This document shows positions 5,956 to 64,000 of a stretch of 64,000 bases of DNA, in pieces. Origin of the DNA: Heptranchias perlo (lineage: Eukaryota); NCBI RefSeq assembly GCF_035084215.1, contig NC_090364.1, positions 4,774,001 through 4,838,000 of the forward strand, read 5' to 3'. The position numbers and the translations under genes were made by a program. Numbering within the stretch: the stretch's first letter is position 1; each line of letters begins with the position of its first letter. Under the pieces are notes generated by a model, which was not told where the DNA came from, did not search any database, and saw nothing but the letters and a program-made list of their open reading frames with translations.

Positions 5956-6012
5956 CAGGAGCAGGTGAGTGAGGGTTTGTTTAAGGATCTTGTTATTTGG
6001 TCACTTTTCAAG

Positions 6013-27620: not shown

Positions 27621-27704
27621 CACCCATGACGACATCGCCCCGGGCTGGGGGGGTCGGATGGTGACGGAAGGGACACCAGCACTGCCGGCTCTATAGTGAC
27701 AGCT

Positions 27705-29180
27705 TGCACCAGGATAGTGAGAGTGCACACCAGCACTGCCTGCACCAGGATAGTGCACACCAGCACTGCCTGCACCAGGATAGTGCACACCAGCACTGCC
27801 TGCACCAGGATAGTGCACACCAGCACTGCCTGCACCAGGATAGTGCACACCAGCACTGCCTGCACCAGGATAGTGAGAGTGCACACCAGCACTGCCTGCA
27901 CCAGAATAGTGCACACCAGCACTGCCTGCACCAGGATAGTGAGAGTGCACACCAGCACTGCCTGCACCAGGATAGTGCACACCAGCACTGCCTGCACCAG
28001 GATAGTGAGAGTGCACACCAGCACTGCCTGCACCAGAATAGTGCACACCAGCACTGCCTGCACCAGGATAGTGAGAGTGCACACCAGCACTGCCTGCACC
28101 AGGATAGTGCACACCAGCACTGCCTGCACCAGGATAGTGAGAGTGCACACCAGCACTGCCTGCACCAGGATAGTGAGAGTGCACACCAGCACTGCCTGCA
28201 CCAGAATAGTGCACACCAGCACTGCCTGCACCAGGATAGTGAGAGTGCACACCAGCACTGCCTGCACCAGGATAGTGAGAGTGCACACCAGCACTGCCTG
28301 CACCAGGATAGTGCACACCAGCACTGCCTGCACCAGGATAGTGAGAGTGCACACCAGCACTGCCTGCACCAGAATAGTGCACACCAGCACTGCCTGCACC
28401 AGGATAGTGAGAGTGCACACCAGCACTGCCTGCACCAGGATAGTGCACACCAGCACTGCCTGCACCAGGATAGTGAGAGTGCACACCAGCACTGCCTGCA
28501 CCAGGATAGTGAGAATGCACACCAGCACTGCCTGCACCAGGATTGTGCACACCAGCACTGCCTGCACCAGAATAGTGCACACCAGCACTGCCTGCACCAG
28601 GATTGTGCACACCAGCACTGCCTGCACCAGAATAGTGCACACCAGCACTGCCTGCACCAGGATAGTGCACATCAGCACTACCTGCACCAGGATAGTGATG
28701 GTGCACACCAGCACTGCCTGCACCATTGTATTATGTGCCAACGCCACCTGCACTAGGATAGTGACAGAAGGGGGGCACCAGCTCTGGCTGCACCAGAATA
28801 GTAACAGTGTGCACCAGCACTACTTCTACCAGGATAGTGACAAAGTGCACCAGCAGCACCTGCACCAGGAATAATGACTGCACACGAGCAGCGTTTGCAC
28901 TAGAATAGTGACAGCTTGCAATAGTACCGCCTGCACCAGGATAGTGAAAGAGAGGGTACAAACACTGTCTGCTAAGGATAGTGTCAGAGGGGGAATCCGC
29001 ACCGCCTGCACCAAGATAGTTACAGCGTGCGCCAGCAGCGTCTGCACCTGAAAAGTGACAGAGGGGGCACCATCACCCGCTGCAGGAGGATAGTGACAAA
29101 GGGTACACACCAACACTGCCTACAGCAGGATAGTGGCAGATGGGCCACTGGCATTGCCAGCAACAGAATAGTGACAGTGT
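27705..29180. repeat. 30/36-bp minisatellite (TGCACCAGGATAG[TGAGAG]TGCACACCAGCACTGCC), ~31 homogeneous units to ~28725, degenerate to ~29180
   Basis: Read directly. Unit lengths are multiples of 3, which creates spurious long ORFs on both strands. Confidence 0.97.
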
Positions 29181-40900: not shown

Positions 40901-43900
40901 CAGCCCGCTTGATTGGCACCCCATCCACCACCCTAAACATTCACTCCCTTCACCACCGGCGCACTGTGGCTGCAGTGTGCACCATCCACAGGGTGCACTG
41001 CAGCAACTCGCCAAGGCTTCTTCGACAGCACCTCCCAAACCCGCGACCTCTACCACCTAGAAGGACAAGAGCAGCAGGCGCATGGGAACAACACCACCGG
41101 CACGTTCCCCTCCAAGTCACACATCATCCCGACTTGGAAATATATCGCCGTTCCTTCATTGTCGCTGGGTCAAAATCCTGGAACTCCGTTCCTAACAGCA
41201 CTGTGGGAGAACCGTCACCACACGGACTGCAGCGGTTCAAGAAGGCGGCTCACCACCACCTTCTCGAGGGCAATTAGGGATGGGCAATAAATGCCAGCCT
41301 TGCCAGCGACGCCCACATCCCGTGAACGAATAAAAAAAAAATGGTCACTTTTACTGATACCAGCTTCTTAATTTACTTTTTAAGCTGAATTCAAATTCTC
41401 AAACTGGGATTTGAACTCACGTTCTCTGGATTATTAGACGAGCAATATAACAATTACACTACCGTGCTCAACTGACACCAGTGATTGGAGTGAAAGACCA
41501 AATCGTATGGACCCAGAGGTCAAAGTCTCTCATACAGCACATATACTCTTGGGCGTCAGTCAGACACGCAGAGAAAATCTCTAAAGCCACTCTGCGCCTG
41601 GGTTTACATAAACAACCTGCACTGGAGGAGTCTCACAAGGGCACCCATTGTTACAAGATTGCTGCTACTTTCAACACATTTAATAAAGCAAGAAATGGAA
41701 TGTCAACCATTCTCACTGACGTCAATTAGAAAATCCCGAGTCTAACGCATTCCACCTGGTACAATACGCCAGCATCTGCGTTCACCTAAAGCAGCAAGTT
41801 GCAGCAGGTCAATTTTCTGTGCACAGGCTCAGTTAGCCTGGTCTCTAAAATAGAACGGATTTTTAAAAGTGCAACTCTTCGTTTATTTCAGGGCAATCCT
41901 TCTCTGTCTTGCCTCCTTGGACCCACAAGGAGGCAGCATACCAAGGGGTCTCTGCAAACTCCGAACCGGTTGCTGCAAGGTGCACTGGGTGAGGGGGCAT
42001 CTTCCTTCATTTTTACGTCCGCCTGCTTCTACCTCCATAATATTGCCTGTCTCTGCCCCCGCCTCAGCTCATCTGCTGCTGAAACCCTCGTCCATGCCTC
42101 TGTCACTGCTAGGCACGACTATTCCAATGCTCTCCTGGCTGGTCTCCCACCTTGTACCCTCCGTAAATTTGAGCCCATCCAAAACTCTGCTGCCCGTATC
42201 CTAGCTCGCTCCAAGTCCTGTTCTCCCATCGCCCCTGTGCTCGCTGACCGACATTGGTGCCTGGTCCAGCAATGCCTCGATTTTAAAATTCTCATCCTTG
42301 TGTTCAAATCCTTCTATGGCCTCCCTATCTCTGTAACCTCCTCCAGCCCCTACAACCCTCCACGATCTCTGCACTCCTCCAATTCTGGCCTCTTGCACAT
42401 TCCTGATTTTCTTCGCTCCACCAGTGGCGGGCGTGCTTTCAGCTGCCTGGGCCCTAAGCTCTGGAATTCTCTCCTTAAACCTTGCTGTCTCTCTCTCTCT
42501 CCTCCTTTAAGACGCTCTTTCAAACCTACCTCTTTGACCAACTGTCCTAATATCTCTTTATGTGGCTTGGTGTCAGATTTTGTCTGTTAACACTCCTGTG
42601 AAGCACCCTGGGACGTTTTTATTATGTTAAAGGCGCTATATAAATGCAAGTTGTTGATGTCCGGGTTGCAAAGGGGTTAACTTGAACGCAGCTGAGGTTG
42701 AGAGCTAGGCGACTTACGAATGGACTTTGAAAGATCAATTTTGTCTTCATCAAAGCTGTGATCGTTGCTCATAAGCCAGCAACACACACCCCCCACTGTG
42801 TTCCAGCTGCAGTGCTGTGTCTGGGCTTACTGAGTGTACTGGTACCAACGCATTATAGCAAAGATTGTACTTAAGCCAATACACTTTAGTCCTGTGCCAA
42901 CAGACTTCTGTGCGATGCTGTTAAGTTATCAGCTCCAATTTATCCCATCGCTACCAGAGATGAACTTGTATTTCACGCCTCAGCTTGACTCAGTTGGCAA
43001 CGTACTCGCCTCAGAATCAGGAGGTTGTGGGTTTGAGCACACAATCTAAGCTGACACTCCAGTGCAGCCTGAGGGAGTGAAACTTTGAATTACACCCACC
43101 TGACCTGTGAGAAACAGTCAGAGAGACTATTCTTCGGCTAAGACGTGAAACCGAGGCCCGATCTGCCTGTTTCTGCGATTCACGCAGATGCTAAAGATCC
43201 CACCGTGCAATCTGAAGAGGTGCACGGAGGTCCCTAAACTTTCCGATCAAGGGTCCTCAAACACCATATAAACACAATGCTATCTGTGGGATAGCCTAGA
43301 TCACTGCACTTCAAAGGCATTCACATTTCGCTCTGAGAGGTGCGACAAGAAACTGCATGGAAGTACATCTTTCCTTCATTTTTCATAATGATTTGATGCA
43401 GTTCAAAACACTCGTAGAAAATGCCGTTGAAAAATGTCCCAAGTTGCTTCAGAGGCGTATTCAGATCAGTGAACCTCGTGTGAAAATGTCACACTCCCAC
43501 CATTACACTTTACTGAAAACACACCGAGCTGAGGGGGCAGACGGGAAGTTGGGAATATTTCTACAGCCTGCACAAATATTATATTCTGCGGTTCCTCTTT
43601 GATTGCGTGCCAGCTGTACAATCGGATGATTCACGCGATGAGCTGGGTCAGGAAAGGGCCTGCAGCGCGTTCCCCACCTTCAATGGAACAATTGTAAACA
43701 ATTTTACAACACCAAGTTATAGTCCAGCAATTTTATTTTAAATTCACAAGCTTTCGGAGATTTTCTCCTTCCTCAGGTAAAAACATTTACCTGAGGAAGG
43801 AGAAAATCTCCGAAAGCTTGTGAATTTAAAATAAAATTGCTGGACTATAACTTGGTGTTGTAAAATTGTTTACAATTGTCAACCCCAGTCCATCACCGGC

Positions 43901-46900
43901 ATCTCCACATCAATGGAACAAGGCAAATCGGCGAAAAGTACTTCCACCGGCCAGCAAGTTGGATCATTTAAGACGGTCCTCAAAAGAATGAAGGAAGCAG
44001 TTAGGAGAAATATTTTTATGCAGAGAGGGCTGTTCAGACTTGGACTATGTGCTTAAACACACAACCTCCTGATTCTGAGGCGAGTACGTTGCCAACTGAG
44101 TCAAGCTGAGGCGTGAAATACAAGTTCATCACTGGTAGCGATGGGATATATTGGAGCTGATAACTTAACAGCATCGCACAGAAGTCCATTGGCACAGGAC
44201 TAAAGTGTATTGGCTTAAGTACAATCCAGTAGAAATGGTGGAGGACACAGAATCCACAATAGCTTTTAAAAGGGAAACAAATAAATATTTGAAAAAGAAA
44301 CATTTAAAGGTGTCAGACGTGGTTGAGTGGTTGAATCCTACTCCAGAGACTTGAGCAGATAACCCAAGCTGACACTCCAGTGCAGTACTGAGGGAGTGCT
44401 GCACTGTCTGAGGTGCCGTCTTTCGGATGAGACGTTAAACCGAGGCTCTGTCTGCCCTCTCAGGTGGACGTAAAAGATCCCATAACATTATTTCGAAAAA
44501 GAGCAGGGGAGTTTTCCCTGGTGTCCTGGCCAATATTTATCCCTCAACCAACATCACTAAAACAGATTATCTGGTCATTATCACATTGCTGTTTGTGGGA
44601 TCTTGCTGTGCACAATTTGGCTGCTGCGTTTCCTACATTACAACAGTGCCTACGCTTCAAGAGTACTTCATTAGCTGTAAAGCGCTTTGGGACGTCCTGA
44701 GGTCGTGAAAGGCGCGATATAAATGCAAGTTCTTTCTTTCTTCTTTGACATGGGGTAAGGACAGTGGACTGCTCTTCCAGATTCTATGAAACATGTTCAC
44801 ATACAAGTAAACGGCAATGGGCGGCCGGCTTCTGCGAGCAGACATTAAGACGACCTACAGTAAAGCATCCTAGTGACCTCAAGCTCAAAATGCCATCTCC
44901 AAATACATGCTGATAATCTAATTAAACTACTGGGTGGTTTCTTTTTCCACAGAATTTCACATTAAACTGTACTGAAACCCCCGCGACAAGACTCTCTGGA
45001 TGAATAATTGGGAAACAGGTTACCGGCTGAAACCCCTCAAAAGAATGATACACTGAACCGCAAAATAAATAAGGACAGTCCCCCAAGAGTCTCGTCAGAC
45101 CCCTGACTTAACGTATCTGAGTATTTGTAATAAGAACTTGCATTTATTTACCACCTTTCACAACCTAAGGACGTCCCAAAGCGACTTACAGCCAATGAAG
45201 TACTTTTAAAGTGTAGTCATGTAGGAAACGCGGCAGCCAATTTGCGCACAGCAAGATCCCACAAACAGCAATGAGATAAATGACCAGATAATCTGTTTCA
45301 GTGACGTTGGTTGAGGGATAAATATTGGCCCGGACACCGGCACAGTGCCAGTTTCCTGCTCATGAAACACGACTTCATTTGTCCAAGAATGTGGGTACAG
45401 TAGTGTAGTGGTTATGTTACTGGACTAATAATCCAGAAAGCAGGAGTTCAAATCCCACCACTGGCAGTTCAAGAATGTTAATTCCGTTTTTTTTTAAATC
45501 TGGAAATAAAAAGCTGGTATCAGTAAAAGTGACCATGAAGGTGTCTGACTGTCGTAAAAAAAAACCCAACTGGTTCACTGATGTCCTTCAGGGAAGGAAA
45601 CCTGCTGTCCTTATCCGGTCTGGGCCGATATGTGACTCCAGTCCCAACGTGGTTGATTCTTAGCTATCTCTCTGAAGTAGCGTAGCCAATCAGTCATATC
45701 AAACTCAGGGAGTCTAGGGATGGGCAATTAAAGCCAGCCTTACCGGCGATGCCCAAACCCTGAGAACGAATATACATTATAAAAACAGGCTTAATGGAGA
45801 ACTATCACAGATTGGTGAGTAGCTCAGCATTCTGATGATTGAGTCTTCAACTAAATAGACCAAAACCACAAACTGGTTCAGTTTCGCCCAACAACCCAAA
45901 TCATCACACCCACTGATTCCAATTATTCATCCAGTGAGTGCTGTCACTAGGATCTCAGTACCAAGCAGAGCATGTGAAATTTTGTACTCCGTCCTCTTGA
46001 TTTGTGAAATATACTCAGCAGCGCAATTAGATTGTCGATTGGGGGACGTGTGCCTGGAGAGGGCACTTTGAGCTTGAAGTCGCTAGGGCAAGTTACTACA
46101 ATAGTGCAATTTGAGAAGATGAATTAAACGTACTAGACAAATAACTTATTGGTGTCAGTACACTAAAGCCAGTGACAGCAACAAGCCGGTTGCAAGAACA
46201 GAGAGCTAAACACTCGCAGTTTGATCAGGAAATGACAACCTGATTCAGGAGCACATGAAGTGGCTCACATAAGGATATCACTGTGAACATCCTTACAGCT
46301 CTGGGAGAGCTGGTCACACTATATATGTAGTCAGTCCTGTTATAGTGTGTTCTGGTTACACTCCTTGCAATCAGCTGTTTACAGTAGCGTGAGGCAGGAG
46401 TGCACAGCAGCTGTTGGGAGGGAGGGAGAGAGAACACACTGATCAACTGTTGGGAGGGAGGAGAGACGAGCACATCTGCTGTTGGGAGGGGTAACACATA
46501 CACAGATTGGCAGACAGATGGAGAGAACTGACCAGCTGTTGGTAGCCGCATGAGTCTGGAGTACAATGATCCACTTTTGGGCAGAGAGATGTTGGATGCA
46601 ATGGAGTCTTAAAAGTTATCTGAAAATTAATTTTCAGCACTAAGTTCCCCCTTGCTATGTTATCGAAGTTGCTTAATTCAAATTATTAAATAATTCAATG
46701 TTTTTGGCAAACAAAATGACCTTGAGACAACAGACGATGGATGATATGGTTCTCTTTACATTGTATTTTTCAAATCTTTTCTTGCATTATTCCTGAAATG
46801 ACAAAATACTTGTAAAACCAAATGTGAGAACCATACTAAAAGCTCCAATGCTCTCTCTGCACACCTGATCAGTGGGTCCCCTCTCTCTGCCCGCACCTGA

Positions 46901-49654
46901 GCAATGGGTGTCTCTCTCTCTCTCTCTCTCTCTGATCAATGGGCCCCTCTCTCTCCCCGCACCTGTCACAAGGTTTGAGTTATCTATTAATCCCCTCCAC
47001 TGGATAAGACAAGTCTCACAGGTGAGGAGATGTAGGACCATCACATTCTAAAGACACTCATGGTTTAGTTAAGACTGAAGAGTAACAGGTTTGTAGTTCT
47101 GCCAAGTGGCACTCATAGGGATCACCATTATCACTTTGGTTTAAACCCAGGACTTTTCAGTGAATAAAGGCACTGCCTCGTATATCCCTATGATGGGGTG
47201 GGGAGATCAATTCCCTCCGGACTGAAATCCAATGCCTCCCTGTGGACAGGCATGAGAAACGGTTAGTTGGGGCACCAGCTACTGCTGCCACCGTTTACCG
47301 AAGAGGTGAGGATTAGAAATGGACGATAATGTCAAAACATTTCAAAGGGAGATCACGGTCGATGTGATTTGCCCCGGGGGAACAGGTCAGTCTTGGTCCA
47401 TTCCAGCTGTACATGGACGAATGCCAAAATGAAAAACAAATTAGAAATTACAGAAGGAGGTCATTTGGCCCATCATGATGGCGCTAGCTCTCCAACTGGA
47501 GTCATACATTGTAATTCCTTTCCCCTGTATACTTTTATATTCTTCCTTTTCAAATGCTTATCCAATTCCCTTTTAAATGATCTCATGGCCTCTGCCCTGG
47601 TGTCCCCTTACGCTGGAACATTTCAGATTCTAATATCCCCACTGCGAGAAAAAAAATTCCTTCCAACTTCCTCCTTCTCCCTGATAATCCTCAGTCTGAG
47701 CCCCCGTCATTACTGATTCACCAAACCAGTGGAAACAAACCTTCTCACTGTTCACCCCTCGCAGAATCTCTCATCACCTTAACAAAAACCTCAATTCAAT
47801 CCCCTTTAACCTCCGCTGTTCAGGGGGGGGGGGGAAAGAGAGGAGTGTGGGGTGAGGCATTTGGGGGGCGGGGAAGTGTGGGGTGAGGTATTTTGGGGGG
47901 GAGGGGGAAAGTGTGGGGTGAGGTATTTTGGGGGGGAGGGGAAGTGTGGGGTGAGGTATTTTGGGGGGGAGGGGGAAAGTGTGGGGTGAGGTATTTTGGG
48001 GGGGAGGGGGAAAGTGTGGGGTGAGGTATTTTGGGGGGGAGGGGAAGTGTGGGGTGAGGTATTTTGGGGGGGGGGGGAAGTGTGGGGTGAGGTATTTTGG
48101 GGGGGGGGGGGGGGGGAGTGTGGGGTGAGGTATTTTGGGGGGGGGGGGGAAGTGTGGGGTGAGGTATTTTGGGGGGGGGGAAGTGTGGGGTGAGGTATTT
48201 TGGGGGGGGAGGGGAAGTGTGGGGTGAGGTATTTTGGGGGGGGGGGGGGGAAGTGTGGGGTGAGGTATTTTGGGGGGGGGGGGGGGGGGAGTGTGGGGTG
48301 AGGTATTTGGGGGGGGGGGGGAAGTGTGGGGTGAGGTATTTTGGGGGGGGCGGGGAAGTGTGGGGTGAGGTATTTTGGGGGGGGCGGGGAAGTGTGGGGT
48401 GAGGTATTTTGGGGGTGGGGGACTGAGGGGTGAGGTATTTTGGGGGTGGGGGAGTGAGGGGTGAGGTATTTTGGAGGAGGGGGGGGGGGGGGGGGGAAGT
48501 GTGGGGTGAGGTATTTTGTGGGTGGGGGAGTGTGGGGTGAGGTATTTTGGGGGTGGGGGAGTGAGGGGTGAGGTATTTTGTGGGTGGGGGAGTGTGGGGT
48601 GAGGTATTTTGGGGGTGGGGGAGTGTGGGGGTGAGGTATTTTGGGGGTGGGGGAGTGTGGGGTGAGGTATTTTGGGGGTGGGGGGAGTGTGGGGTGAGGT
48701 ATTTTGGGGGTGGGGGGAGTGTGGGGTGAGGTATTTTGGGGGTGGGGGGAGTGTGGGGTGAGGTATCGAGGGGGGGCACCCAGAGGGACTGGGGCGGTGG
48801 GGGCTGTGGCTCAGTGTTGTCGGGAGGGGTTGAGGGAGAGACAACGGATCCCGACTGATTATAATCAGGGGGTCAGGGGGTTCGGGGGGGGGGGGGAGGG
48901 GGGGGAGGGGAGGGGGGGGGGGGGAGGGGGGGGAGGGGAGAGGGGGGGGGGAGGGGGGAGGGGGGGGGGAGGGGAGAGGGGGGGGGGGAGGGGGGAGGGG
49001 GGGGGAGGGGGATCGGGGGGGGGGAGGGGGATCGGGATCGGGGGAGGGGAGAGAGGGGGTCAGTCTGTGAATTGGGGGGTCCCAACCTGGCATCCAGCTG
49101 TTGCTGGGGGGGGGGGGAGAAAGACCAGCCCCCCCCCACCCCTGAGGCAGACCCGAGGGGGGGAAACTGGGGCAGTTTCACCCCACCCCAGGGAGAGGCC
49201 TGAGCGGCTGGAGGCCCAGATCCCACCCCCTCCCCATCAGCCGGGCCCCTCTCCCCTCAGAAACCCTTCCCCGAGCTGGGGAAACACCGGGGACTCTCCA
49301 GGCCCGGCCGGCCCCTGGCAGCTCCTCTCCCCACCCGGATGGCTTCCAACTCGAGCCCGAGGCTCCACGCCGGGCCTTGTCGCCTCTTCCTTCTCTCCCC
49401 CCACCCCGGCGCCCGTCCCTCCCCGACTCACTCTCCCTCCCTCCCTCCCCCGCCCCACCGCCTGTCCCCTTCCCCCTGGAGCCTAGGCCGCAAGACCCCC
49501 CGAGCCTCGGCCGCTCCCGCCCGCGGGGCCCCGGCCTCCCGTTACCTTTCTGGATGCGGAGCTGGGCGGCCGACGCCTTCTTGGTGCCGGTCTTGGCGGC
49601 TCCGGCGGCGTCTTCTTCCTTCTTCTGCTGCTTGAGCGAGAAGAGCTTGATCAT
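31988..49654 (-). CDS. UBE2M: NEDD8-conjugating enzyme Ubc12, 183 aa; exons 49654-49546, 38402-38308, 37416-37378, 34922-34819, 33436-33373, 32128-31988
   Basis: [13 protein letters not shown]-terminus, HPN motif, catalytic [14 protein letters not shown] and C-terminal [14 protein letters not shown]. Exons total 552 nt with GT-AG introns and consistent phases. AATAAA on the minus strand at 31632-31637 and 29854-29859. Confidence 0.98.
32762..32778 (-). promoter_or_regulatory. CTCF-like motif in UBE2M last intron
   Basis: The minus strand reads TGCCACTAGATGGTGA, close to CCACYAGRKGGC. Motif match only. Confidence 0.3.
36835..37210 (+). mobile_element. CR1 LINE 3' fragment
   Basis: [11 protein letters not shown]...[21 protein letters not shown] translation and CR1 tail. 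Confidence 0.85.
39748..40146 (-). mobile_element. CR1 LINE 3' fragment
   Basis: [28 protein letters not shown] translation and CR1 tail. Confidence 0.85.
40355..41340 (+). mobile_element. Second 5'-truncated copy of the LINE at 21337, inserted into a SINE
   Basis: QGSVLGP...FADD RT end in a continuous frame to the stop at 41277, with the same 3' tail and A-run. Flanks match the reverse complement of the SINE at 45395. Confidence 0.92.
42015..42657 (+). mobile_element. L2 LINE 3' portion
   Basis: [24 protein letters not shown]...QNSAARIL...[14 protein letters not shown] translation and tail AGGCGCTATATAAATGCAAGTTG. Other fragments at ~13585-13780, 24625-24935, 35390-35690 and 56455-56765 (-). 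Confidence 0.85.
43688..43910 (+). mobile_element. Penelope-like element remnant: perfect 94-bp-arm palindrome plus 3' tail, with target-site duplication
   Basis: Arms 43688-43781 and 43786-43879 with loop AACA. Penelope-type terminus GGACTATAACTTGGTGTTG...ACCCCAGTCCATCACCGGCATCTCCACATC. TCAATGGAACAA is repeated at 43680-43691 and 43910-43921. Confidence 0.8.
43786..43824 (+). ncRNA. Minimal hammerhead-ribozyme-like motif (mirror copy on the minus strand at 43743-43781)
   Basis: TTTAC-CTGAGGA-A-GGAGA AAA TCTCC-GAAA-GC-TT-GTGAA gives a CUGANGA/GAAA core, stem II, palindromic AAGCTT stem III and stem I TTTAC/GTGAA. Confidence 0.55.
44310..44745 (+). mobile_element. Deu-type SINE, near full length
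   Basis: Same family as 5133. Further minus-strand copies at ~45130-45340, 52493-52672, 57345-57778 and 58652-59099. Confidence 0.85.
45395..45772 (+). mobile_element. tRNA-derived SINE sharing its 3' tail with the LINE at 21337/40355
   Basis: Head TAGTGTAGTGG...GAGTTCAAATCCCACC; tail TAGGGATGGGCAATTAAAGCCAGCCTT...GAGAACGAAT. Confidence 0.65.
47822..49060. repeat. G-rich tandem array (GTGTGGGGTGAGGTATTTT[G]n-GGAA, ~32-42 bp) followed by a poly-purine G tract, UBE2M intron 1
   Basis: Read directly. The array runs 47840-48766 and the (GnA) tract 48880-49060. Confidence 0.95.
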
Positions 49655-49865
49655 GGTGCAGAGCCGGGTGCGAGGCCTCGGGAGTCGGGCTCGGGTCGGA
49701 GCGAGAGACGGAGCCGCCGCTCGGGCTGGGGATGAAAGCGCAGAGCAGCGTGGGAGCGGGGTCAGAGGTCGGGGGGGAGGGGCTGGGTGTGTGTTAGGGG
49801 GGGGGGGGGGGTCTGTGTCTGGGTCTCTGTCTCTGTCCATCTGTCACTGAGTGGTAGCACCCTGG

Positions 49866-51724
49866 GGAGACACACTCGGGGGTGTGGGAGACACACTCGG
49901 GGTATGGGAGACACACTCGGGGTATGGGAGACACACTCGGGGTATGGGAGACACACTCGGGGTATGGGAGACACACTCGGGGTATGAGAGACACACTCGG
50001 GGTATGGGAGACACACTCGGGGTATGAGAGACACACTCGGGGTATGGGAGACACACTCGGGGTATGAGAGACACACTCGGGGTATGGGAGACACACTCGG
50101 GGTATGAGAGACACACTCGGGGTATGGGAGACACACTCGGGGTATGAGAGACACACTCGGGGTATGAGAGACACACTCGGGGTATGGAAGACACACTCGG
50201 GGTATGGGAGACACACTCGGGGTATGAGAGACACACTCGGGGGTGTGGGAGACACACTCGGGGTATGAGTGACACACTCGGGGTATGGGAGACACACTCG
50301 GGGTATGAGAGACACACTCGGGGTATGAGAGACACACTCGGGGTATGAGAGACACACTCGGGGTATGGAAGACACACTCGGGGTATGGGAGACACACTCG
50401 GGGTATGAGAGACACACTCGGGGTATGGGAGACACACTCGGGGTATGAGAGACACACTCGGGGTATGAGAGACACACTCGGGGTATGGAAGACACACTCG
50501 GGGTATGGGAGACACACTCGGGGTATGAGAGACACACTCGGGGGTGTGGGAGACACACTCGGGGTATGAGTGACACACTCGGGGTATGAGAGACACACTC
50601 GGGGTATGAGTGACACACTCGGGGGTATGAGAGACACACTCGGGTATGGGAGACACACTCGGGGGTATGGGAGACACACTCGGGTATGGGAGACACACTC
50701 GGGGGTGTGGGAGACACACTCGGGTATGGGAGACACACTCGGGGGTGTGGGAGATACACTCGGGGGTATGGGAGACACACTCGGGTATGAGAGACACACT
50801 CGGGGGTGTGGGAGACACACTCGGGTATGAGAGACACACTCGGGGGTGTGGGAGACACACTCGGGGTATGAGAGACACACTCGGGTATGGGAGACACACT
50901 CGGGGGTGTGGGAGACACACTCGGGGTATGAGTGACACACTCGGGGTATGAGAGACACACTCGGGGGTGTGGGAGATACACTCGGGGGTATGGGAGACAC
51001 ACTCGGGGTATGAGAGACACACTCGGGGGTGTGGGAGATACACTCGGGGGTATGGGAGACACACTCGGGTATGGGAGACACACTCGGGGTATGGGAGACA
51101 CACTCGGGGTATGAGTGACACACTCGGGGGTGTGGGAGATACACTCGGGGGTATGGGAGACACACTTGGGTATGGGAGACACACTCGGGGGTATGGGAGA
51201 CACACTCGGGGGTATGAGAGACACACTTGGATATGGGAGACACACTCGGGGGTATGGGAGACACACTCAGGGGGTATGAGAGACACACTTGGGTATGGGA
51301 GACACACTCGGGGGTATGGGAGACACACTCGGGGTATGAGTGACACACTCGGGGTATGGAGGCACACTCAGGTATGGGAGACACATTTGGGTATGAGAGA
51401 TACACTCGGGGGTATGGGAGACACACTCGGGTATGGGAGACACACTTGCGTATGGGAGACACACTCGGGGGTATGGGAGACACACTCGGGGTATGAGAGA
51501 CACACTTGCGTATGGGAGACACACTCGGGGGTATGAGAGACACACTTGGATATGGGAGACACACTCGGGGGTATGAGAGACACACTTGGATATGGGAGAC
51601 ACACTCGGGGGTATGGGAGACACACTCAGGGGGTATGAGAGACACACTTGCGTATGGGAGACACACTCGGGGGTATGGGAGACACACTCGGGTATGGGAG
51701 ACATTCAGGGGTATGGGAGACACA
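49866..51724. repeat. ~20-bp minisatellite (GGGAGACACACTCGGGGTAT), roughly 90 units, immediately upstream of UBE2M
   Basis: Read directly. Units are 19-22 bp; the array is homogeneous near the gene and diverges distally. Confidence 0.97.
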
Positions 51725-54700
51725 GGGGAGGGAAATGTAGAGTTGGGGGATGTGTGCTTGTGGGTCTCCGATGTGTGGGGTACATGTATATTTGGGGGTA
51801 TCTCATTCCCACAATTACCAGCAAGGAAATATTAATAACATGTTGTTTGTTGACCATTGAGTGGCCATTGTTCCATTGAGTGGCTTCTCTCCCCCTCCCT
51901 CCGTTTCGAGTTTAAATCCTTTCCTCTTGCTTTGCGCATGTTCAATCTGAAAGTACCACAATCACTACTTTTACACTTTGATCATGTGATCTCAAAACCA
52001 CTTCCTCATGACAGTTAGTAGGTGCCTAAAAGTGAAGGTTCTCACAACTCAACGAGGCTGAGCGTTTCTGCTAATTTCGAGACAATTGTGCGGCTCGTCA
52101 ACTTTTAACTAAAGGGCCACATTCACAACGTGCAAATAATCGATATTAGAGTAGGAGAACAATTGGGAAATAGCAGCTACAACGTAGCTAGGTTTTAACG
52201 TCAAAATAGAAAAGGATAAAGAGGAATCAAAGATGAGGGTGCTGAATTAGGAAAAATGCAGAGCTTCGTGAGATAAGAAGGGATCTGATCCCAAATAACT
52301 GGGCAGAAACGTTAGCAAATAGGACGACACATCAGCGGTGGGGAACCTTCAAACATGAGGTGGGTGGAGTACAAAATAAATATATCCCTATAAGGCAAAA
52401 AGGGAACTACTTCAAAGAGTGGAATTCTGTGGATAAATAGAGATATTAAAATTAAACTGAAACTTAAAAGATATCTGAAAAAATACTACAAAGGCTTGCA
52501 TTTATATAGCCCCTTTCACGGCCTCGTGACGGGCAAAATTAAGTATATTTGAAGTGTCGTCACTGTTGTAATGTAGGAAACGTGCAACCAATTTGTGCAC
52601 AGCAAGATCCCACAAACAGCAACATGATAATGACCTGATAATCTGTTTTAGTGTTGTTGGTTGAGGGATATAACATTTCACAGGTTATTCTATTTCTTTT
52701 CCTGCATGTGTGTATGTTTTTTTTTTCCTTCCCCCTTTCCCTTCTTCTGTTCCTTGCTGTCCATCTGTAATATCTTCCAGTCCTGAGTCCGGGTCTTTAG
52801 ACTCGAAACATCGGCTGACTTGTCTTGTGTTTCCCTGCAGAAGTTGCCTGGCCCGCTGAATATTTCCAGCATCTGCATAATTTTGCCTTTTGTTCAGATC
52901 AGCTGACTCTCCGAACAGCGGGGATTGAACCTGGAGACCTTCCTGTTCTCGTTGGCAAGCTGACCGAGGAGACTGGGTTCCGTCCTTCCATGGCCCACAC
53001 GTGCTCACTCTGACAAGTACACAAGATGCTCCATAGCTTCACCCGATGGTTAAATGGGTGAAACACCCAGGCCAGTGCTGACTTGCCTGATACTCAGCTG
53101 GGACACAATTGGCCTTAGTGCCATTGGGTCAAGGTGGGCGAGAGGGAAAGAGGGAGGAAACAAAATGTCAGCCAGCATTCCTGCTCCTTATCTCTATCAG
53201 TGACTTCGGCTGCCAAGTGCGTGCCACGTAAAACGGCAGACTTTTCTTTGCGCGAGGTGAGGGACGCTCCCCAACACAGCTATAGCGCAGTCAGCCCTCT
53301 GCTCTGCCCCAACAACGTGCCTCAGTCCCAACTTCAGAAGAACATCCCCTACTATACTAGAATCATACAGCGCAGAAGGAGGCCATTTGGCCCATCGTGC
53401 CTGTGCTGGTGCGACTAGTATGACTTTTTTCCACTTCCTACACCGGCCATCTGTGCCCTTTGACTGAGTAGCCATTCAGAGCCAAATCAGAGGCAGGTTT
53501 GTGCTGTGGACCCCTGGCCCACTTGGAGCTGATTGAGACTTTATAAAATAATTTCATATTGGATTCTTATAGCCAGCAGACAGGGACTTTCATCCTATTA
53601 ACAGTCTGGATTGGATTCTGAACCCAGGTCCGAGAGGTAAAAGGCCAGTGTCTGACCCACTGCACCACCCAACTCCCAGACAGGTCTTTTTTCTTGGATA
53701 TCAGTACCATTGCAGACCTGTCTTAGGGGAAACACCAGGTCATTGCTCTAATATTAGTGGATATGGGCAGCCTGCACAGTTAAGGTGCATCATACTCAAG
53801 ATGGAAAAGGGTTTCATCTCAAAGCTCAATGATTGTGTCAGATTGTTGGAGTTTCTGAAACTTCTGTTGTGTTTCTTGGGCCAGGAACCAGCAGTTATGG
53901 GCTTGGAGCCTGTGACCGATGGTGAATGTGCTGAGATTTATCAGTGTGCTCAGAACTATCCCATCAAGCTCTCCCTGGTCAGATACATTTAACCTCTCAA
54001 GAGCACTTCCCGCTATAACACGAGCCTCCTTCAACTCACCCTATCAACATATCCTTCTATTCCTTTCTCCCTCATGTCCTTACTCAGCTTCCCCTTAAAT
54101 ATATCTATGCTATTCGCCTCAACTGCTCCACATGGTAGCAAGTTCCACATTTTAACCACTGAGTAAAGAAGTTTCTCCTGAATTCCTTATTGGATTTATT
54201 AGTGATTATCTTATATTTATGGTCCCCAGTTTTGGATTCCCCACAAGTGGAAACATCTTCTCTACCCTATCTTAATTATCATTATCTTAAAGACCTCCAT
54301 CGGGTCACCTCCCACCCTTTGCCTTGCTAGAGAAAAGAGCCTCAAATGATGCCATAGCTTTGACAGATACTTGGCTTCAGCTGGGGAAGGGGCTGGGAGA
54401 GAAACCATGCTGAATATTACAGAAGGGATAAATAAAGAGGGAGGAGGCATTGCATTACCAATTCAGCATTGGACAGAAGGGATGTTATTGAGGGTACTGT
54501 CCAGACTGCAGGGTAGATCTTGACTTTGTGCTATAGTGTAAAACGGGTATGGTCAAAGACGGACACTGTGTCTTCAGCTGGCTGTTTTGAATATGATATC
54601 TTCTCCAAGAATTTTGGAAATCTTGCAAGAACGCTTCACCGTGCTGAATTACTACAATGTCAAGGCTAGGAATGGAACGTGTATGTTAGTCATTTGTTCA

Positions 54701-56093: not shown

Positions 56094-59000
56094 CTAGTCT
56101 TCATCAAGCCGACGTCTTTTAGCTGGGCTGCTGTCGAGGTCACCTGTAGGACAGGCCGGCTCCCTTGCGTCAGTTTGGTCACAGTGTCTGCTGTCCCTCT
56201 CCATCTCCTCATCGTCCACCGGGGGGGTGGCAAAGGTTTTGTTGCTGAAGACGTCCATCAACTTCTCCTCGAAGTACGACTCGAGCGTCTTCACAGACTC
56301 GGCCACCTCCTTGTCCTTAAAAAGAATTCAATTGGAAACAATTGTTTTTAAATCACTGTAATCAAATGAAAAAGGACCAGCTGAACATAAACTTTAAAAA
56401 AAAAAATTCTCCTGTGTAAATAAATCCCATAGATAATCCAGTGGTTTAGTGAACACAACAACTTGCATTTATATAGCGCCTTTCATGTTGTAAAATGTCC
56501 CAAGGCACTTCACAGGAGTGTTAAAACAAAATTTGTCACTGAGCCACGTAAGGAGATATTAGGACAGGTGAGGTAGGTTTTAAGGAGCGTCTTAAAGAAG
56601 GAGAGAGAGGTAGAGAGGTTTAGGGAAGGAATTTCAGAGTTTCGGGCCTAGGTTGCTGAACGCACAGACACCAATGGTGCAGCAATTGGGGGGCGAGACC
56701 CTGCACGGATTTGAAAACAAATATGAGAATTTTAAAATCGAGGCGTTGCTGGACCGGAAGCCAATGCTCTATCCAGGGTGGAACTGAGCCATAAAGGCCA
56801 GGAAGGTCCTGGGTCTGTGCTAAGTTGGCAGATCTTAGCCTGGGCTATAGTTGGCTGCCAAAATTGGCCTCAGATTCGTGGACTAAGGAAGGGGGACAAA
56901 AGAATCAGCTAGGGTTTCTGCTGGAAAGTGTCTGCGTATCTATGTCAGGTATGGACAGGACTGGGCTCTACTGGGGTGCCCTCCAGTTGAAAGCTTTCTG
57001 GCACTCAGTGGCTTGGCTCGTCAGCAAAAATGGTCACTTGGGCAAGTGACCAAAGGCAGCCAGCAACCCCAGCGTCTTCAGATACATTCTCAATAATCTT
57101 CATCTCTCACTGGTGCTGATGGCTAACTGCAGGGACCTGGACTGCCTCTCCAAACTTGTCTCCCGTGAATAACCCTCCTTGCAGGCTTTTTAACAATCTC
57201 CTGGCTTTCCCCAACAGTCCTCAGGCAGGACTTGAAAAGCATCTGAAAATACAGAGATTCCCTTATCTGCCACATTTATCATTTGGGAACAGGGAGATAT
57301 CACGCATCATATTGATCTTGTGGTTAACAAATGCTAATGTAAGAAATAAAGAACAAACTTTTATTGAAATGACACTTATCACGATCTCAGAATGTTCCAA
57401 AGCGCTTCCACAGCCAAATAAAGTACTTTTGAAGTGTAGTCACTGTTCTAATGTAGGGAAACGCAGCAGCCAGGTCCCACAAACAATAATGAGATAAATG
57501 ACCAGTGTTTCAGTGATGTTGGTTGAGGGATAAATATTGTCCAGGACACCGGGAGAACTCCCCTGCTCTTCGAATAGTGCCATGGGATCTTTTATGTCCA
57601 CCCAAGGGGGTAGTTGGTTTAACATCTCATCCGAAAGATGCCACTTCTGACACTCCCTCAGTACTGCACTAATGTGTCAGCCTAGATTATGCGTTCGAGT
57701 AGCTGCAGTGGGAGTTAAACCGACAACCTTTTGATTCAGAGGCATGAGTGTTATCTACCCACTGAGCTGAGGCCGACACAAACGTTCACAGAGAGAGACA
57801 CTAGAAATTTTTTTTAAAACAATATCTATTTGTGAATCTGAGTCGATTCAAGCACTGTACTGTGTGCTCCCTGTCCCCGGCCTGCAAACAAATCTATCTA
57901 CAAACTTACCCAAAGAGGCAACAAGGATAGAATGCAGGCAATGGAAAGGTGATGTTGCACTTCAAACATTGGGACTGATGTTCTCAGCTCACTAGGTTAG
58001 CTTCCAACTCGTGGCATTTCTACAAGAGTGCAAAAGTGTTCTGTCCATCAAAATCACCGTGCATTTATACAGTGCCTTTACCATAGCAAAACATCCCATG
58101 GCACTTCGGCGGTGTGAAGAAAATGGACGTCAAGCCAAAGATGGGCGGTTAAAAGTGTGATCAAAAGCTCGGTCAAGAAGATGGGTTTTATGGAGTGTCT
58201 TAAAAGAGAGGGAGGTGGGAGAGGCAGAGGGGATCAGGGAGTGAAAAGTGGCCACATCTTTCTCAAGAAGCACAAGTAAATGAACCATCAGAAAATGAAG
58301 CAACAGGAAATAACCAGCTGGCCCTTTCCCTTACCTGAATCAGTTTGCCAAATGACTTAAACATTAATCGAGCCTCCAGCACAAACTCATCAGGTGAGGA
58401 GTAACGGGGTGAGCTCGTCTTCTCAAGTTTTGCTCTGATGGAAGGCAGGTCTACTCGCTGATTTTTCAACTGTAAAAGAAACAATGACAAGAGCAAGATT
58501 AACTTTGGGTCCAGGGCAAGGAGTGGATTAAGTAAGGGCCTTGGAAAGTAGAGGGGCTGGAGGAAGAATGAAGAGAATTTGCTGAAGGGCAGCCTGTGGT
58601 TGAAGTCTTGTATTTATAATGGGAAAAGCTGACAGGGAGTGCATGCAGACAAAGAAAGAACTTGTATTTATATAACACCTTTCACAACCTCAGGACTTCC
58701 CAAAGTATTTTACAGTCAATGAAGTACTTCTGAAGTGTAGTCACTGTTGTAATGTAGGGAACACAGCAACCAATTTGCGCACAGCAAGGTCCCACAAACA
58801 GCAATGAGATAATGTCCAGATAATCTATTTTACTGATGTTGGTTGAGGGATAAATATCAGCCAGGTTACCAGGGAGAACGCCCCTGCTTTTCTTCGAAAT
58901 AGTGCCACCAGATCTTTTCAGTCCACCTGAGAGCAGGCGGGGCCTTGGTTTAACGTCTCATCCAAAAGACGGCACCTCCGACAGTGCAGCACTCCCTCAG

Positions 59001-62000
59001 TACTGGCACTGGGTGTGTCAGCCTTGATTATGCGCTCAAGCCTCTGGAGTGGGACTTGAACCCGGAGGAGAGAGTGCTACCACTGAGCCAAGGCTGACAC
59101 TTAGACACGAGATTCTTGATGTATTATAGAAGACACAGATAGATATATTTGACAACTTAATTTATAAACAAGTTGAGCAAGAGAGTCACACAAAGAGCTC
59201 ACTGAAGGGATATTCTTCAAATGCTTACTTGTGAGAATCCAGTGGGGTTTTGGAGGGCCTGACTCAGCTTATGAGAGAGCAGCAGCAGCAGCAGGTGTTC
59301 ACATCTCTGTAAAAACATGCCACAATGAGACACACAAAACTGGCATCGCTGTGACACCTACATAATGTGTATAAACACTAACACGCCTCCACTCCGAGGA
59401 CACACTTTCTTTTTCAATGGTGCTGCTTTTTCTTTTCTGCCGTTATCCCTCCACCCCTCGAAGGCCGACTCGTGTTGGTTGACAGTTTCACAGGTACTGG
59501 CCCAAGTGGCCACTGCTTGTGCGTGATCCTCAGCCAGTGAATGTTGGCAGGCTAGGCACTGATTTCAAGCATCACCTCCAGTCTTCACCCAATGTGCGCA
59601 CACACGCGTGCACCAAACAGCAATCAAGGGCAGGAACTCTGGCTGACATTCCCGTCCCTGGTCCCCGCTGTCAAACAGCTTCCAGAAACTCACCGTCAGC
59701 CACGCATGTGAGGAACAGTCACTCTGGTACCTCTCCAAAGTAGTCACTCTTCATGCGTTAGCCCAACAGCAAGTGCCAGCAGGCAGTTTGACAAATACCA
59801 CAGCCGAGCCAATCCTGATCGCACCCAGTGTCTTTCAGTGGGGTACACTAGACCGCGATCAGCGGCATGAACCCAGACTGATTTTTCCTTCCCTAGTCAA
59901 GGGCCAATGAGGGTTAATTGCTGCTCCCCCAATGGAGAACAGCTAACTCAGCATAGACTGAGATTACAACCTGGGACTTTCTGGTCTGAGTGAATATGTT
60001 GCACTCTCTAATTTATCTATCAATCTTAACAAATCACAGAGGGAGAGGAATCCTGCTCATATGTCATATGTATTTCCAGTTTCAGTACAAACCCTCTGAT
60101 CGAGAGGGCACAGGCCCTCCACTGCAGCACTACTGCTGCTTTCTAATGCTGCTGGTGAACTTTCAGTCTGTACTTCAGATGCTGCCAAATCCACACATAT
60201 CGAACATGTCCATTCGACACTGCAGAAAAAGAAACAAAGAGGTCACTCACAATGAACTTCACCCGAATTTAAAAACATATAATACTAGCAGATATCCCAT
60301 GGTGTCGTTCAAGATGTTATGATATTTTACAATGACAGGAGCATTGTAATGCACCGTATTAGAGCAATGTGCACAGTTCTGGTCACCATATTATAAAATG
60401 GATATAGAGGCACTGGAGAAGGCGCAAAAAAAGATTTACAAGGTTGCTACCAGAAATGAGAGGTTGTACCTATCAGGAAAGATTGAACATTTCTGTATAA
60501 AATGAGAAGGCTGAGGGGTGACCTGATAGAGGTTTTTAAGATTGATAGGGTAGATGTAGAGAAGATATTTCCACTCATGTGGGAGACCAAAACTAGGGGC
60601 CATAAATATGACTATAAGATAGTCACTAATGAATCCAATAGGGAATTCAGGAGAAACTTCTTTACCCAGAATGGTTAAAACGTGGAACTCAGTACCACAA
60701 GGAGTGGTTGAGGCAAATAGCATGCATTTAAGGGGAAGCTAGATAAACACATTAGGCAGAAAGGAATAGAAGGTTATGCTGATAGGGTTAGATAAAGAGG
60801 GGAGGGAGGAGGCTCGTGTGGAGCATAAACACCAGCATGGACCAGTTGGGCCGAATGGCCCGTTTCTGTGCTGTACATTCAATGTAATTCTACAAAATAT
60901 ATTATTCTGCTGCTGATGGGAGTTGTGTTTAAGCTGGCCTCTTCTAAGGCTACAATATCCAACTGATGTTAAGTAAACACAGCCTGAGGTCACTCAGTTT
61001 AATTGTTGTTTGGTCAGGGAACTTTGCGGACTGGACTGGAAGTTTCAGGTTGCAGCTCAGTAACACCCAGCATTTTAAGATTGTTTTGCATCTTTAATGA
61101 AGTGTGACTTGTGAAATGTGATGTACTGTTTTTAATATTTCTAAAAATTGCAGATACATTTCCAAATAATCTCCCCTCTTCAACTGCTGGTGTTGACTCT
61201 TGTTGGGTATAGTTGAATGGATGCTGACAACACTCCCCTACTTCACCCAAATACTCATTCTTCATCTGCACGCCCAGGAAGTGAGTGGCAGCAGGCGATT
61301 CCACCTTGGAGGACATCAATATTGAGCTCAATCTTGTCAACACCCATGCACTTTCAAGCCAAGATTACTGAATAAGTAATCAGGAGTAGGAATCTAGGTT
61401 CAATATTACAATCCCCAGCTCAGAGTACTGAGGGTAACTGTAGGGCCCGACTGCTACCCCAGCTAATTCAGCAGCCCGGGAGTTGTAACTGGGATCTGCT
61501 CAGCTGTAGGAATTAGTACCACACCCAGACTGGACCTTGGATCAATTCCCTGGCCATGGCTTTCGCTCCTAATTGCTTTCCCATAACATTTGCTGGAAAA
61601 TGATCAAATGCACGTCGCGTAGGGGAAAGGGTGGGATAAAGAGCTAACTCAGATCAGATGGGGGTTGCACCAGAGACCTTCCTCCTGGGCAGTACGGCTC
61701 AGCTACTCACTGCCTTAACCGGGCCATCAGAGTTCACCCATCGTAAGTTCAGCACTTTTTATTTCGACCCGTTTCACGATGGACTCACCTGGGCACACTC
61801 AGCAGAGCAGGAACGTGGCAGTCAACGTGAAACACCTTCAGGCAACGACTACAACATGCCAGCTCGCCTCCTTTCCGACAAACGACGCAGACGACCTCAT
61901 CCGACTCCTCGCCTTTCTCACTGACGCTGCACAGCGGAGATGACTTCAGGTCCGGTATGCTTCCGGGCGACTTTTCACTGGGGGAGGGCGTGGGGCTCAG

Positions 62001-62120
62001 GGCATGGTGGGAACGCTTGCTTGCTACCTCAGTCCTCTCGTTAAACACAAATTCGATTTCAGTTTCTGACGCGGGAGAGGCCGAGTTTGGTGGGGTCAGG
62101 GTGCTCTCCAGAGTCGGTGC
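56094..62120 (-). CDS. TRIM28: TIF1-family protein, C-terminal PHD plus degenerate bromodomain, probable TRIM28/KAP1 orthologue, 5'-partial; exons 62120-61789, 60219-60093, 59306-59229, 58469-58335, 56315-56094
   Basis: C4HC3 PHD CVVCRKGGELACCSRCLKVFHVDCHVPALLSVPSVEWTCSIC, then LCPLDQRRCEHLLLLLLSHKLSQALQNPTGFSQLKNQRVDLPSIRAKLEKTSSPRYSSPDEFVLEARLMFKSFGKLIQDKEVAESVKTLESYFEEKLMDVFSNKTF...PAKRRRLDED*. Phases are consistent. The TIF1 family call is strong; the TRIM28 assignment rests on bromodomain degeneration and linkage to CHMP2A/UBE2M. Confidence 0.75.
58652..59099 (-). mobile_element. Deu-type SINE, near full length
   Basis: Reverse complement of the 5133 family, including the tRNA-like head. 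Confidence 0.85.
60340..60892 (+). mobile_element. CR1 LINE 3' fragment
   Basis: Similar to the CR1 at 10093-10455 and 36835-37210, with an ATTCTA tail. Confidence 0.85.
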
Positions 62121-64000
62121 CTGCAAGTCAGAAACAGAATTACTACTTCCTCTGGTGGGGGGGGGGGGGGGGTGGAGTCCAGAACAAGGGGGGCATAACC
62201 TTAAAATTAGAGCAAGGCCATTCTACAGTGATGTCAGGAAGCACTTCTTGGCACAAATCTGGAACTCAAATGCTACTGAGGCTGGGGGTCAATTGAAAAT
62301 TTCAAAACTGAGATTGATAGATTTTTGTTAGGCAAGGGTATTAAGGGTTACAGAACCAAGGCTGGTAAATGGGAGTTGAGATACAGATCAGCCATGATCT
62401 AATTGAATGGCAAAACAGGCTCGAGGGGCTGAACGGCCTCCTCCTGTTCCTATGTTCCTAATTGTTTATTTTACATTGCCTTGTGACCCAGCTTTTTCCC
62501 TTTTTCGGTTCCCTTCAGCTACTCTTCCTGTCAGGCATGACACAGTGTACAGCAGTCAGCAGGAGCTGCCTCCTCTGGAAGTACACAGCAGGGTAACCCG
62601 AAGACAGCTATTTCCTCCACGCAGTGCCATGATGGTGCACAGATGGAGGTCAATAACCCCCCCCCCCCCTCACCGAGCACGCGAACGTCTCCGTAGCCGA
62701 GGCAGCACTGTGTTTGTCTCCACAGTACCGCTCCAAGCTTCTCCCGCTGAGAGCGATTCCTCAGAGAGGCTGGAGTTTCAGAGTAGTACTTGGAGTATGA
62801 ATGCATACCCCTGCTATACATTAGTCAAAACATTTCAGAGGAAAAGTTAAGCCTTTTAAACTGTAGAAAAATATGCACACAATTTTTAAAATAATGAAAT
62901 AATCCAGCTTTCATTCCCAGTGATCAATCTGTACACTGTTCACATGTAGACGTTTGTGAGGTTATTGCCCCTCTGATTATATTGCTTCAATTAACCGACC
63001 TTCCAGCTTATTTGCTACAAATACCAATCTATCTATTTGGGCGAGTTATAGCTTATTTTTTAATGATGTTTGGAGAAGGGGGAAGCAACTTTCCAATAAG
63101 ACTGAACTGTCAGTCAACATAGCAACACCTCCGGAGTCCTGGGCACTGATGGGTAAAAGGAACGTTTCCTGTGCAGAGAAACGATTTATGTGGCAACTTT
63201 CTTCTGGCGATATTCTCTCTCCCCCCCCCCCCACCCCCCGGCCGAGTCCACCTCCTTTCCTGAAGGTATTGACGCTTCCATGAGCACCAGGCACCCTCCC
63301 ACACCTGTGAATTAGCCTCGATACCGATTGTTAGGCTATTTGAACAGCAGGCAGTACAGTTGAGCACTGTTCTGCCCTCCACTGACATTCACACGTGCAC
63401 TTTCCAACAGGTATCACTGGATAGAGATCAGGAGTAGGAGCCCTGACTGATTTTTCCCTCCTTGGCCCGGGTGACGGAGCTCAGTCGTAGCACCGTTACT
63501 GCCACACCGGCTGGTAAGTTGATAATTGAAAGTGGCAGCACTGTGGGAGCACCTTCACTACACGGACTGCAGCGGTTCAAGGAAGCTCATCACCACCTTC
63601 TCAAGGGCAACTAGGGATGGGCAATAAATGCCGGCCTTGTTAGCGATGCCCATATCCCGAGAATTAATTTTTTAAAAAAACATCCCATCCTTCGAGTCTT
63701 GTGAAAATATGATGCATATTTTGCATAATAGGAGAAAAACTTCTTTGGTAATCTGATTTACATACTTTAATTAGCATAATTTATGATATCCCCAAAGGCA
63801 TAATTATACTCTCCAGGTTTCTTAAAAGGTAAGAAATGCAATCTGAGTAATGTAGAAAACCCTATTTCGTAATGAACAGAATTTATATTGGGTTTAATAT
63901 ACTTTAACAAGTTACTTCCAACAGAACGATAATTACAAGGGGGGCGGGAGGAGGGAGAAGAGAAATTCCGATCTGGAGTGCATGCAAAATTGCCCGTGAT

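Follow-up and report, generated by a model that had tools for sequence, protein, structure and literature searches.

A probable TRIM28 orthologue in the shark Heptranchias perlo, with a KRAB-docking face and a likely counterpart in ray-finned fish

The window described here, a 64,000-nucleotide stretch of the genome of the shark Heptranchias perlo (G000:C43:4774001-4838000), was analysed together with the next 120 kb and contains the 3' part of a gene on the minus strand for the co-repressor TRIM28 (KAP1/TIF1-beta), which takes part in silencing transposable elements in mammals. The whole gene comprises 19 exons encoding 1127 amino acids, the last five of which lie in the window, with the N-terminal domains up to 70 kb outside it. 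Exon 15 (61789-62120, residues 831-940) encodes a Ser/Pro-rich linker and the first part of the PHD finger, and exon 16 (60093-60219, residues 941-983) the end of the PHD finger and the linker to the bromodomain. Exon 17 (59229-59306, residues 984-1009) carries bromodomain helix Z and the first half of a shortened ZA loop, exon 18 (58335-58469, residues 1010-1054) helices A and B without the acetyl-lysine-anchoring Asn, and exon 19 (56094-56315, residues 1055-1127) helix C, an acidic tail with a basic cluster and the stop codon. The 3' untranslated region, continuous with exon 19 in assembled contigs, extends from 56093 at least to 55400 and holds AATAAA-type signals at 55715, 55631 and 55587, with further ones beyond. 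Upstream, intron 14 (62121-64000) leaves the window, and exons 1-14, at G000:C43:4838852-4908371 (positions 64852-134371 in extended window numbering, minus strand), encode a RING, B-box 1, B-box 2, a coiled coil, a Gln/Pro-rich disordered region and an HP1 box. The coiled-coil exon region with the KRAB-docking turns is at extended 81238-81352 and the HP1 box (PxVxL, residues 782-786) within extended 64852-65040; the RING, B-box and coiled-coil (RBCC) region, the docking residues and the PxVxL motif, which a sequence-only reading of the window had sought beyond its edge, are thus all present.

The exon structure is supported in several ways. All five window exons have AG/GT ends, and the spliced product is a single open frame to the stop codon. 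A protein in the database, P0001 ('transcription intermediary factor 1-beta-like isoform X2 [Heptranchias perlo]'), has 100% identity across the query exon and maps residue for residue on the 19 exons from extended 134371 to 56094, which also confirms the cartilaginous-fish origin proposed from the sequence. Contigs from four runs, whose kind we guess to be RNA and which come from two organisms and two studies, cover exon 15 in 4/4 runs, and the junction 59229-58469 spans the intron in contigs of all four. In one contig of 2320 nt, the matches to exons 15 and 19 are separated by 341 nt, which equals exons 16-18 plus one uncounted base; because this leaves room for exons 16-18 only, the short ZA loop is real, and a ZA-loop micro-exon missing from the gene model is ruled out. 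An alternative acceptor at 58556 is ruled out by P0001 and by the contig joints. A further exon at extended 69666-70106 (L001:5666-6106, minus strand), in the linker, is absent from P0001 and matches sequence in Pristis and Callorhinchus proteins, and by its sequence it is a candidate for conserved alternative splicing.

We conclude, with a probability of about 93%, that this gene is the single TRIM28 orthologue of a shark and encodes a chromatin co-repressor scaffold. Its RBCC region matches human TRIM28 with E 6.5e-128, and among the best 120 matches after the chondrichthyan ones, those with a name are TIF1-beta/TRIM28, except for one double-length teleost TIF1-alpha model, the rest being uncharacterised. 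The main tree was built from 63 TIF1 proteins plus the exon pieces of the paralogue on C30 (64 rows, reduced to 49 by dropping 15 that were redundant or truncated) over 510 columns of the RBCC and PHD-bromodomain under LG+G4, with Tubulanus as the single named row of the outgroup. In this tree, whose groups were named beforehand, the window protein falls inside the TRIM28 clade at 100/100, and the order within the clade is (cartilaginous,(lobe-finned, ray-finned)). The clade is again recovered at 100/100 with the posterior mean site frequency model LG+C20 on 36 of these rows, and at 100/99 in each of the RBCC-only and PHD-bromodomain-only trees of 30 rows. Approximately unbiased (AU) tests on 25 rows, chosen after the trees, reject a grouping of the shark protein with TRIM24/33 (p-AU 4.6e-7) or with TRIM66 (1.9e-8). 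The orthology proposed by the sequence-only reading is therefore upheld, whereas its view of the protein as intermediate between TRIM28 and TRIM24/33 is rejected by the first of these tests. Three other TIF1 loci exist in the same genome, two of TRIM24/33 type on C21 and C30 and one on C12 that is assigned to TRIM66 by its coiled-coil motif only. An identity with SP100/SP140 is ruled out by the presence of the RBCC, as SP140 and SP100 match the PHD-bromodomain alone, at E 7e-15 or weaker. On this reading, TRIM28 arose before the jawed-vertebrate split.

The proposed linkage of TRIM28 to UBE2M and CHMP2A is found here as well. UBE2M (31900-49654, start codon at 49654, 3' end approximate) lies directly downstream of TRIM28 on the same strand, and CHMP2A (18703-26017, 3' end approximate) is likewise on the minus strand. 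Long tandem-repeat arrays (27630-28871 and 47777-51831) are located near the 5' ends of CHMP2A and UBE2M, and a remnant of a long interspersed nuclear element (LINE) reverse transcriptase lies inside CHMP2A (21302-23193, plus strand). Downstream of CHMP2A there are ferritin-like exons on the plus strand (2095-2810, 5953-6207 and 7371-7598), apparently of more than one exon set, and about 36 kb upstream of TRIM28 a cyclin D-like gene is found in divergent orientation (extended about 170000-174000, L011:6018-6500, plus strand).

The PHD-bromodomain of the shark protein is, to judge from its residues, reader-dead. Its ZA segment has 19 residues and no YY motif, against 24-25 residues in 21 of the 24 TRIM24/33/66 and outgroup rows, and the anchoring Asn occurs in none of four chondrichthyan rows (0/4). 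The PHD finger has no EDW, and its zinc ligands are intact around a TRIM24/33-like core; the basic tail motif is present and the SQ tail absent. These traits, seen in comparisons with PDB chains and in alignments, agree with what had been noticed from the sequence alone, including the resemblance to TRIM24/33. The best PDB match of exon 18 is human TRIM28 (2RO1, E 9.4e-6), followed by TRIM33 (1.7e-4). With Pfam the PHD finger is matched at the cut-off and the bromodomain below it, and Pfam and PDB together match the RING, two B-boxes and coiled coil, so that the protein has the domains of the TIF1 family (TRIM class VI), the C-terminal tandem of PHD finger and bromodomain included. A structure model predicts a four-helix bundle for the bromodomain, with a predicted local distance difference test score (pLDDT) mostly of 74-91, and a long helix at 224-340; the mean pLDDT of the whole-protein model is 49.5, and its RING and B-boxes are poor. 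A fold search matched TIF1 PHD-bromodomain structures at E 1e-15.

Several observations weigh against a plain TRIM28 assignment and have to be considered together. The rows shown from the fold search are TRIM33, TRIM24 and TRIM66 structures and none of TRIM28, the isolated PHD-bromodomain scores 153 bits with TRIM33, 138 with TRIM66, 128 with TRIM24 and 124 with human TRIM28, and exon 19 alone gives weak matches to TRIM33/66/24 and none to TRIM28. The position of I379, part of the SMARCAD1-binding patch, is Lys in the shark. Among the SUMO acceptor sites, one of five checked is aligned: the consensus sites vole K554 and K677 have no match in the shark, though the coelacanth has counterparts, and vole K751 and K805 align with Thr. 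The fifth, vole K780, which corresponds to human K779, aligns with K1056, so that the Lys noticed in the sequence-only reading does hold for sharks and rays but not for the elephant shark, which has Asp. Since the acceptors are so poorly kept, we infer auto-SUMOylation of the shark protein from its intact PHD finger only. The absence of the S824 SQ tail, also pointed out in that reading, is confirmed but is not specific to the shark: the tail occurs in 3 of 110 TRIM28-type rows (P0013-P0122) and in 3 of the 16 mammalian rows shown, and because 107 of the 110 are without it we regard it as uninformative rather than defining.

Could the protein then be a true intermediate or a chimera, joining a TRIM28-type RBCC to a TRIM24/33-type PHD-bromodomain? 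Raw similarity of the PHD-bromodomain does favour TRIM33: its identity is 41-42% with the TRIM33 of birds and sharks, against 35-39% with lobe-finned TRIM28. However, the PHD-bromodomain-only tree keeps the protein in the TRIM28 clade at the 100/99 given above, although a degenerate hagfish domain is pulled into the same clade on a long branch, and the shortened ZA loop and the loss of the Asn are derived features common to TRIM28 and the shark protein. We consider such an intermediate or chimera highly improbable; the TRIM33-like look of the PHD-bromodomain is ancestral sequence retained on a short branch. The hagfish protein itself (P0171, named TRIM33) has an RBCC of TRIM24/33 type, but its PHD-bromodomain is degenerate, with no EDW, ZA motif or Asn; this could be decay that happened independently, the product of a chimeric model, or a hint about how the TIF1 family began.

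The coiled coil of the shark protein carries a nearly complete KRAB-docking face. At the nine KRAB-contact residues mapped by mutation (PMC9601868), shark and vole are identical in 7/9, the other two being Lys/Arg swaps that are also seen in tetrapods, while TRIM24/33/66 share 2-4/9. The motif is found in 10/10 chondrichthyan rows, and no other stretch of the coiled coil exceeds the 17/23 identities of the docking stretch. However, the non-binding bottom face is matched in 4/5 positions and a second coil stretch also reaches 17/23; because the non-binding face is equally conserved, conservation of the docking face does not imply a ligand. In the HP1 box, P782, V784 and L786 align with vole 486-490, and a TRIM28 HP1-box profile gives 85-99 bits for shark and lobe-finned TRIM28, rows that are largely its training set, at most 33 for TRIM66 and at most 3.4 for TRIM24/33. 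By analogy with the mammalian protein, the shark TRIM28 would dimerise through an antiparallel coiled coil, bind HP1 through PxVxL as a chromatin co-repressor scaffold, and use its PHD-bromodomain as a SUMO ligase or SUMO platform with no histone reading.

No KRAB zinc-finger protein (KRAB-ZFP) family without PR/SET was detected: of 83 genome candidates scored with the Pfam KRAB profile, 3 matched, all of them PRDM9, and the shark KRAB exon used as query returned the same loci (3/3), both searches being lower bounds. The three matches are not KRAB-ZFPs, as PR/SET exons and an array of zinc fingers come after each of them. They belong to three near-identical copies of PRDM9 in tandem, spaced by about 38 kb (G000:C45:12190000-12293000, L016-L029), each with a KRAB exon, PR/SET exons and an array of 13, 15 or 11 zinc fingers whose DNA-contact positions differ; SSXRD was matched in 0/35 candidates and thus not detected in the copies. 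The copies may be true paralogues, or alleles that were assembled side by side. Because the only KRABs detected in the genome are those of PRDM9, the docking face predates KRAB-ZFPs as currently dated. The earlier suggestion that the reader-dead bromodomain is older than KRAB-ZFPs is supported, and so is the question, raised at the same time, of what recruits TRIM28 in sharks.

Since the genome shows no KRAB-ZFP family, we favour a KRAB-independent recruitment, by binding to HP1/H3K9me3 and by complexes with TRIM24/TRIM33, tentatively and at slightly less than even odds. In such complexes TRIM24/TRIM33 would supply intact reader modules, in line with a model, cited in PMC11603059, of TIF1 hetero-complexes in which TRIM33 is the reader. 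The KRAB-docking face would then be a pre-existing surface that was later adopted by the KRAB-ZFPs of lobe-finned vertebrates. We rank next, as unlikely, recruitment by zinc-finger proteins whose KRAB-like domain is too diverged for the profile, which would make a KRAB-type system as old as jawed vertebrates. The identity of the docking residues with their two conservative swaps, compared with the few shared by TRIM24/33/66, the occurrence of the motif in every chondrichthyan row and the high conservation of the stretch all speak for it, as does the binding of coelacanth ancestral-type KRABs to their own KAP1 in the part of PMC6745500 consulted; but dimer packing can explain the conservation, given the equally well kept bottom face and second stretch, and both genome searches yielded KRABs of PRDM9 only. 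That the ancestral KRAB of PRDM9, present in three tandem copies, was the original coiled-coil ligand in sharks appears improbable. It is the sole KRAB detected in the genome, but neither coelacanth nor human PRDM9 KRAB bound coelacanth KAP1 (PMC6745500), and human PRDM9 KRAB needs several changes including an MLE insertion to bind (PMC8835667), an insertion that the shark exon does not have. A complex prediction for the coiled-coil dimer with the shark PRDM9 KRAB gave a score of 0.26, with a mark of 0.34, and speaks neither for nor against this.

Another finding of this study concerns ray-finned fish, as the statement of the sequence-only reading that TRIM28 is absent from teleosts appears to be wrong: genes of basal teleosts fall inside the TRIM28 clade. 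Among 143 representatives there are 24 for which, in one domain or more, the highest score comes from the profile of a divergent group whose bromodomain has no Asn, a profile trained on 12 of those 24. The species was checked for 18 of them and is a ray-finned fish each time (reedfish/bichir, gar, bowfin, eels, arowana, mormyrid, bonefish, halosaur, characiforms, knifefish, pike and mudminnow); these genes carry mixed NCBI names and include P0164, P0220, P0207, P0270 and relatives, and the candidates comprise those of bichir (XP_051789824.1), gar (XP_069047864.1), eel (XP_035287137.1) and Astyanax (KAG9279559.1); there is no zebrafish or acanthomorph member among the named rows. In the 49-row tree, 12 ray-finned rows are the sister of lobe-finned TRIM28 (100/99), a placement that is the same under the mixture model with 8 ray-finned rows (100/99) and reaches 86/81 in the RBCC-only tree. 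They belong to the TRIM28 clade in both the RBCC and PHD-bromodomain partitions, and leaving out the lobe-finned rows, bichir or both does not part them from shark TRIM28 (100/99-100/100). AU tests reject their grouping with TRIM24/33, TRIM66 or the outgroup (p <= 6.8e-9) and their exclusion from the shark plus lobe-finned clade (7.6e-4), so that all four alternatives tried are rejected. Their KRAB face is largely lost: bichir retains 4/9 residues (the key Leu being His), bowfin and gar 3-4/9, and the other nine rows 0-1/9. We therefore consider it quite likely, as far as sequences can tell, that ray-finned fish retain a fast-evolving TRIM28; they would have eroded the docking face but kept the gene.

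This conclusion has to be weighed against the idea that these genes are fast duplicates of TRIM24, TRIM33 or TRIM66 placed by long-branch attraction, in which case the published loss stands. Several results do count in its favour. The branches are long, and convergent decay of reader domains can attract, as the hagfish domain does in the PHD-bromodomain tree; RBCC profile scores favour the outgroup over TRIM28 in 8 of 11 neopterygian rows, and the diagnostic RBCC columns of neopterygians are undiscriminating, with a mean of 1.9 of 12 rows for TRIM28, 2.3 for TRIM24/33 and 3.3 for the outgroup. The NCBI names are mixed as well. Nevertheless, the placement is stable under a site-heterogeneous model, in both partitions and to removal of rows, and the AU tests agree. 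Branching within the group follows the species tree, bichir matches 11 of 33 TRIM28-diagnostic RBCC columns against 1 of 18 and 2 of 34 (outgroup 4 of 10), and 12/12 rows score best on the TRIM28 PHD-bromodomain profile among those of the other groups; moreover, a normal TRIM24 is also present in Amia and a normal TRIM66 in Albula. An origin as duplicates thus seems to us rather improbable, and a retained TRIM28 remains our preferred explanation. A bolder synthesis, which we hold to be doubtful, is that every major lineage of jawed vertebrates has kept TRIM28. Sharks would then have the ancestral form, its KRAB-docking face complete, together with an older dedicated recruiter and no KRAB-ZFPs. 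Ray-finned fish would have a fast-evolving, KRAB-blind TRIM28, mislabelled TRIM24/33/66-like, which may be an overlooked candidate cofactor of KRAB-like and FiNZ zinc fingers.

It has been reported, in a 2021 paper, that TRIM28 occurs in Callorhinchus milii, originated in gnathostomes and was secondarily lost in Actinopterygii (PMC8292531); its accession list covers TRIM28 and TRIM33 only, as does its tree. NCBI also names TIF1-beta-like proteins in several rays and in Heptranchias perlo. Because of that paper and this naming, a chondrichthyan TRIM28 and its gnathostome age were already known, and the novelty given to the gene by the sequence-only reading was overrated. In the literature covered, mostly the main text of open papers, we found no residue-level account of a chondrichthyan TRIM28 and no statement that it is retained in ray-finned fish. 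In the portions of text covered, absence of TRIM28 is expressed as 'a close ortholog does not exist' (PMC3912051) and is stated in PMC9101882, PMC11603059 and PMC10380595, all in conflict with our trees, while the statement in PMC10547256 concerns zebrafish only; the word 'trim28' is nowhere in the main text of PMC3137616, and the covered parts of PMC12056039 and PMC7431005 hold nothing on TRIM28 origin. The shark gene accordingly adds one more member to a known family. What makes it interesting is a KRAB-docking face that lacks a partner, together with the likelihood that ray-finned fish have kept TRIM28. It fixes an order of events in which the co-repressor, the dead reader module and the KRAB-docking surface all came before KRAB zinc fingers, and therefore shark TRIM28 is a ready reagent for the question of the earliest TRIM28 role. 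Its slow sequence also anchors the long-branch ray-finned genes within the TRIM28 clade, and this ray-finned result weighs more than the shark gene. PMC9101882, PMC11603059 and, for zebrafish, PMC10547256 build, in the parts consulted, on the absence of TRIM28 with TRIM33 proposed as stand-in. If TRIM28 does exist in eels, characiforms, pike, gar, bowfin and bichir, such models have overlooked a candidate, and the ray-finned lineage would offer a test, set up by nature, of what TRIM28 does when it cannot bind KRAB.

Compared with known systems, the shark protein resembles human and mouse TRIM28 in its RBCC (55-58% identical to lobe-finned TRIM28), 7/9 KRAB contacts, TRIM28-type HP1-box extension, PHD zinc ligands, Asn-less bromodomain with a short ZA loop and linkage to UBE2M/CHMP2A. 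It differs from them in being about 290 residues longer, in its Gln/Pro-rich linker and ancestral acidic/basic tail, and in having no SUMO consensus sites to match vole K554/K677, no S824 tail and no detected KRAB-ZFP family. The human arrangement of TRIM28, CHMP2A and UBE2M, which we take to have another order and other strands, also differs from that of the shark, where the direct neighbour is UBE2M rather than CHMP2A and all three genes are on one strand. The elephant-shark TRIM28 (P0010) is an orthologue and sister within the chondrichthyan clade (100/99), sharing the coiled-coil motif and the apparently reader-dead PHD-bromodomain, with 76% RBCC and 60% PHD-bromodomain identity and without the K779-aligned Lys. 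TRIM66 (TIF1-delta), the sister clade of TRIM28 in three trees (95/89, 86/77 and 95/89), resembles shark TRIM28 in the Lys-Met pair of its coiled coil and in the core of its HP1 box, which is nearly identical, but has an acidic PHD N-terminus, a YY ZA loop, the Asn, 2-3/9 KRAB-contact residues and its own locus on C12. TRIM24 and TRIM33 share the domain order and the PHD core and tail motifs kept from the common ancestor; unlike shark TRIM28, however, they are histone readers with an intact ZA loop and Asn, have another coiled-coil centre, and are encoded by separate loci on C21 and C30.

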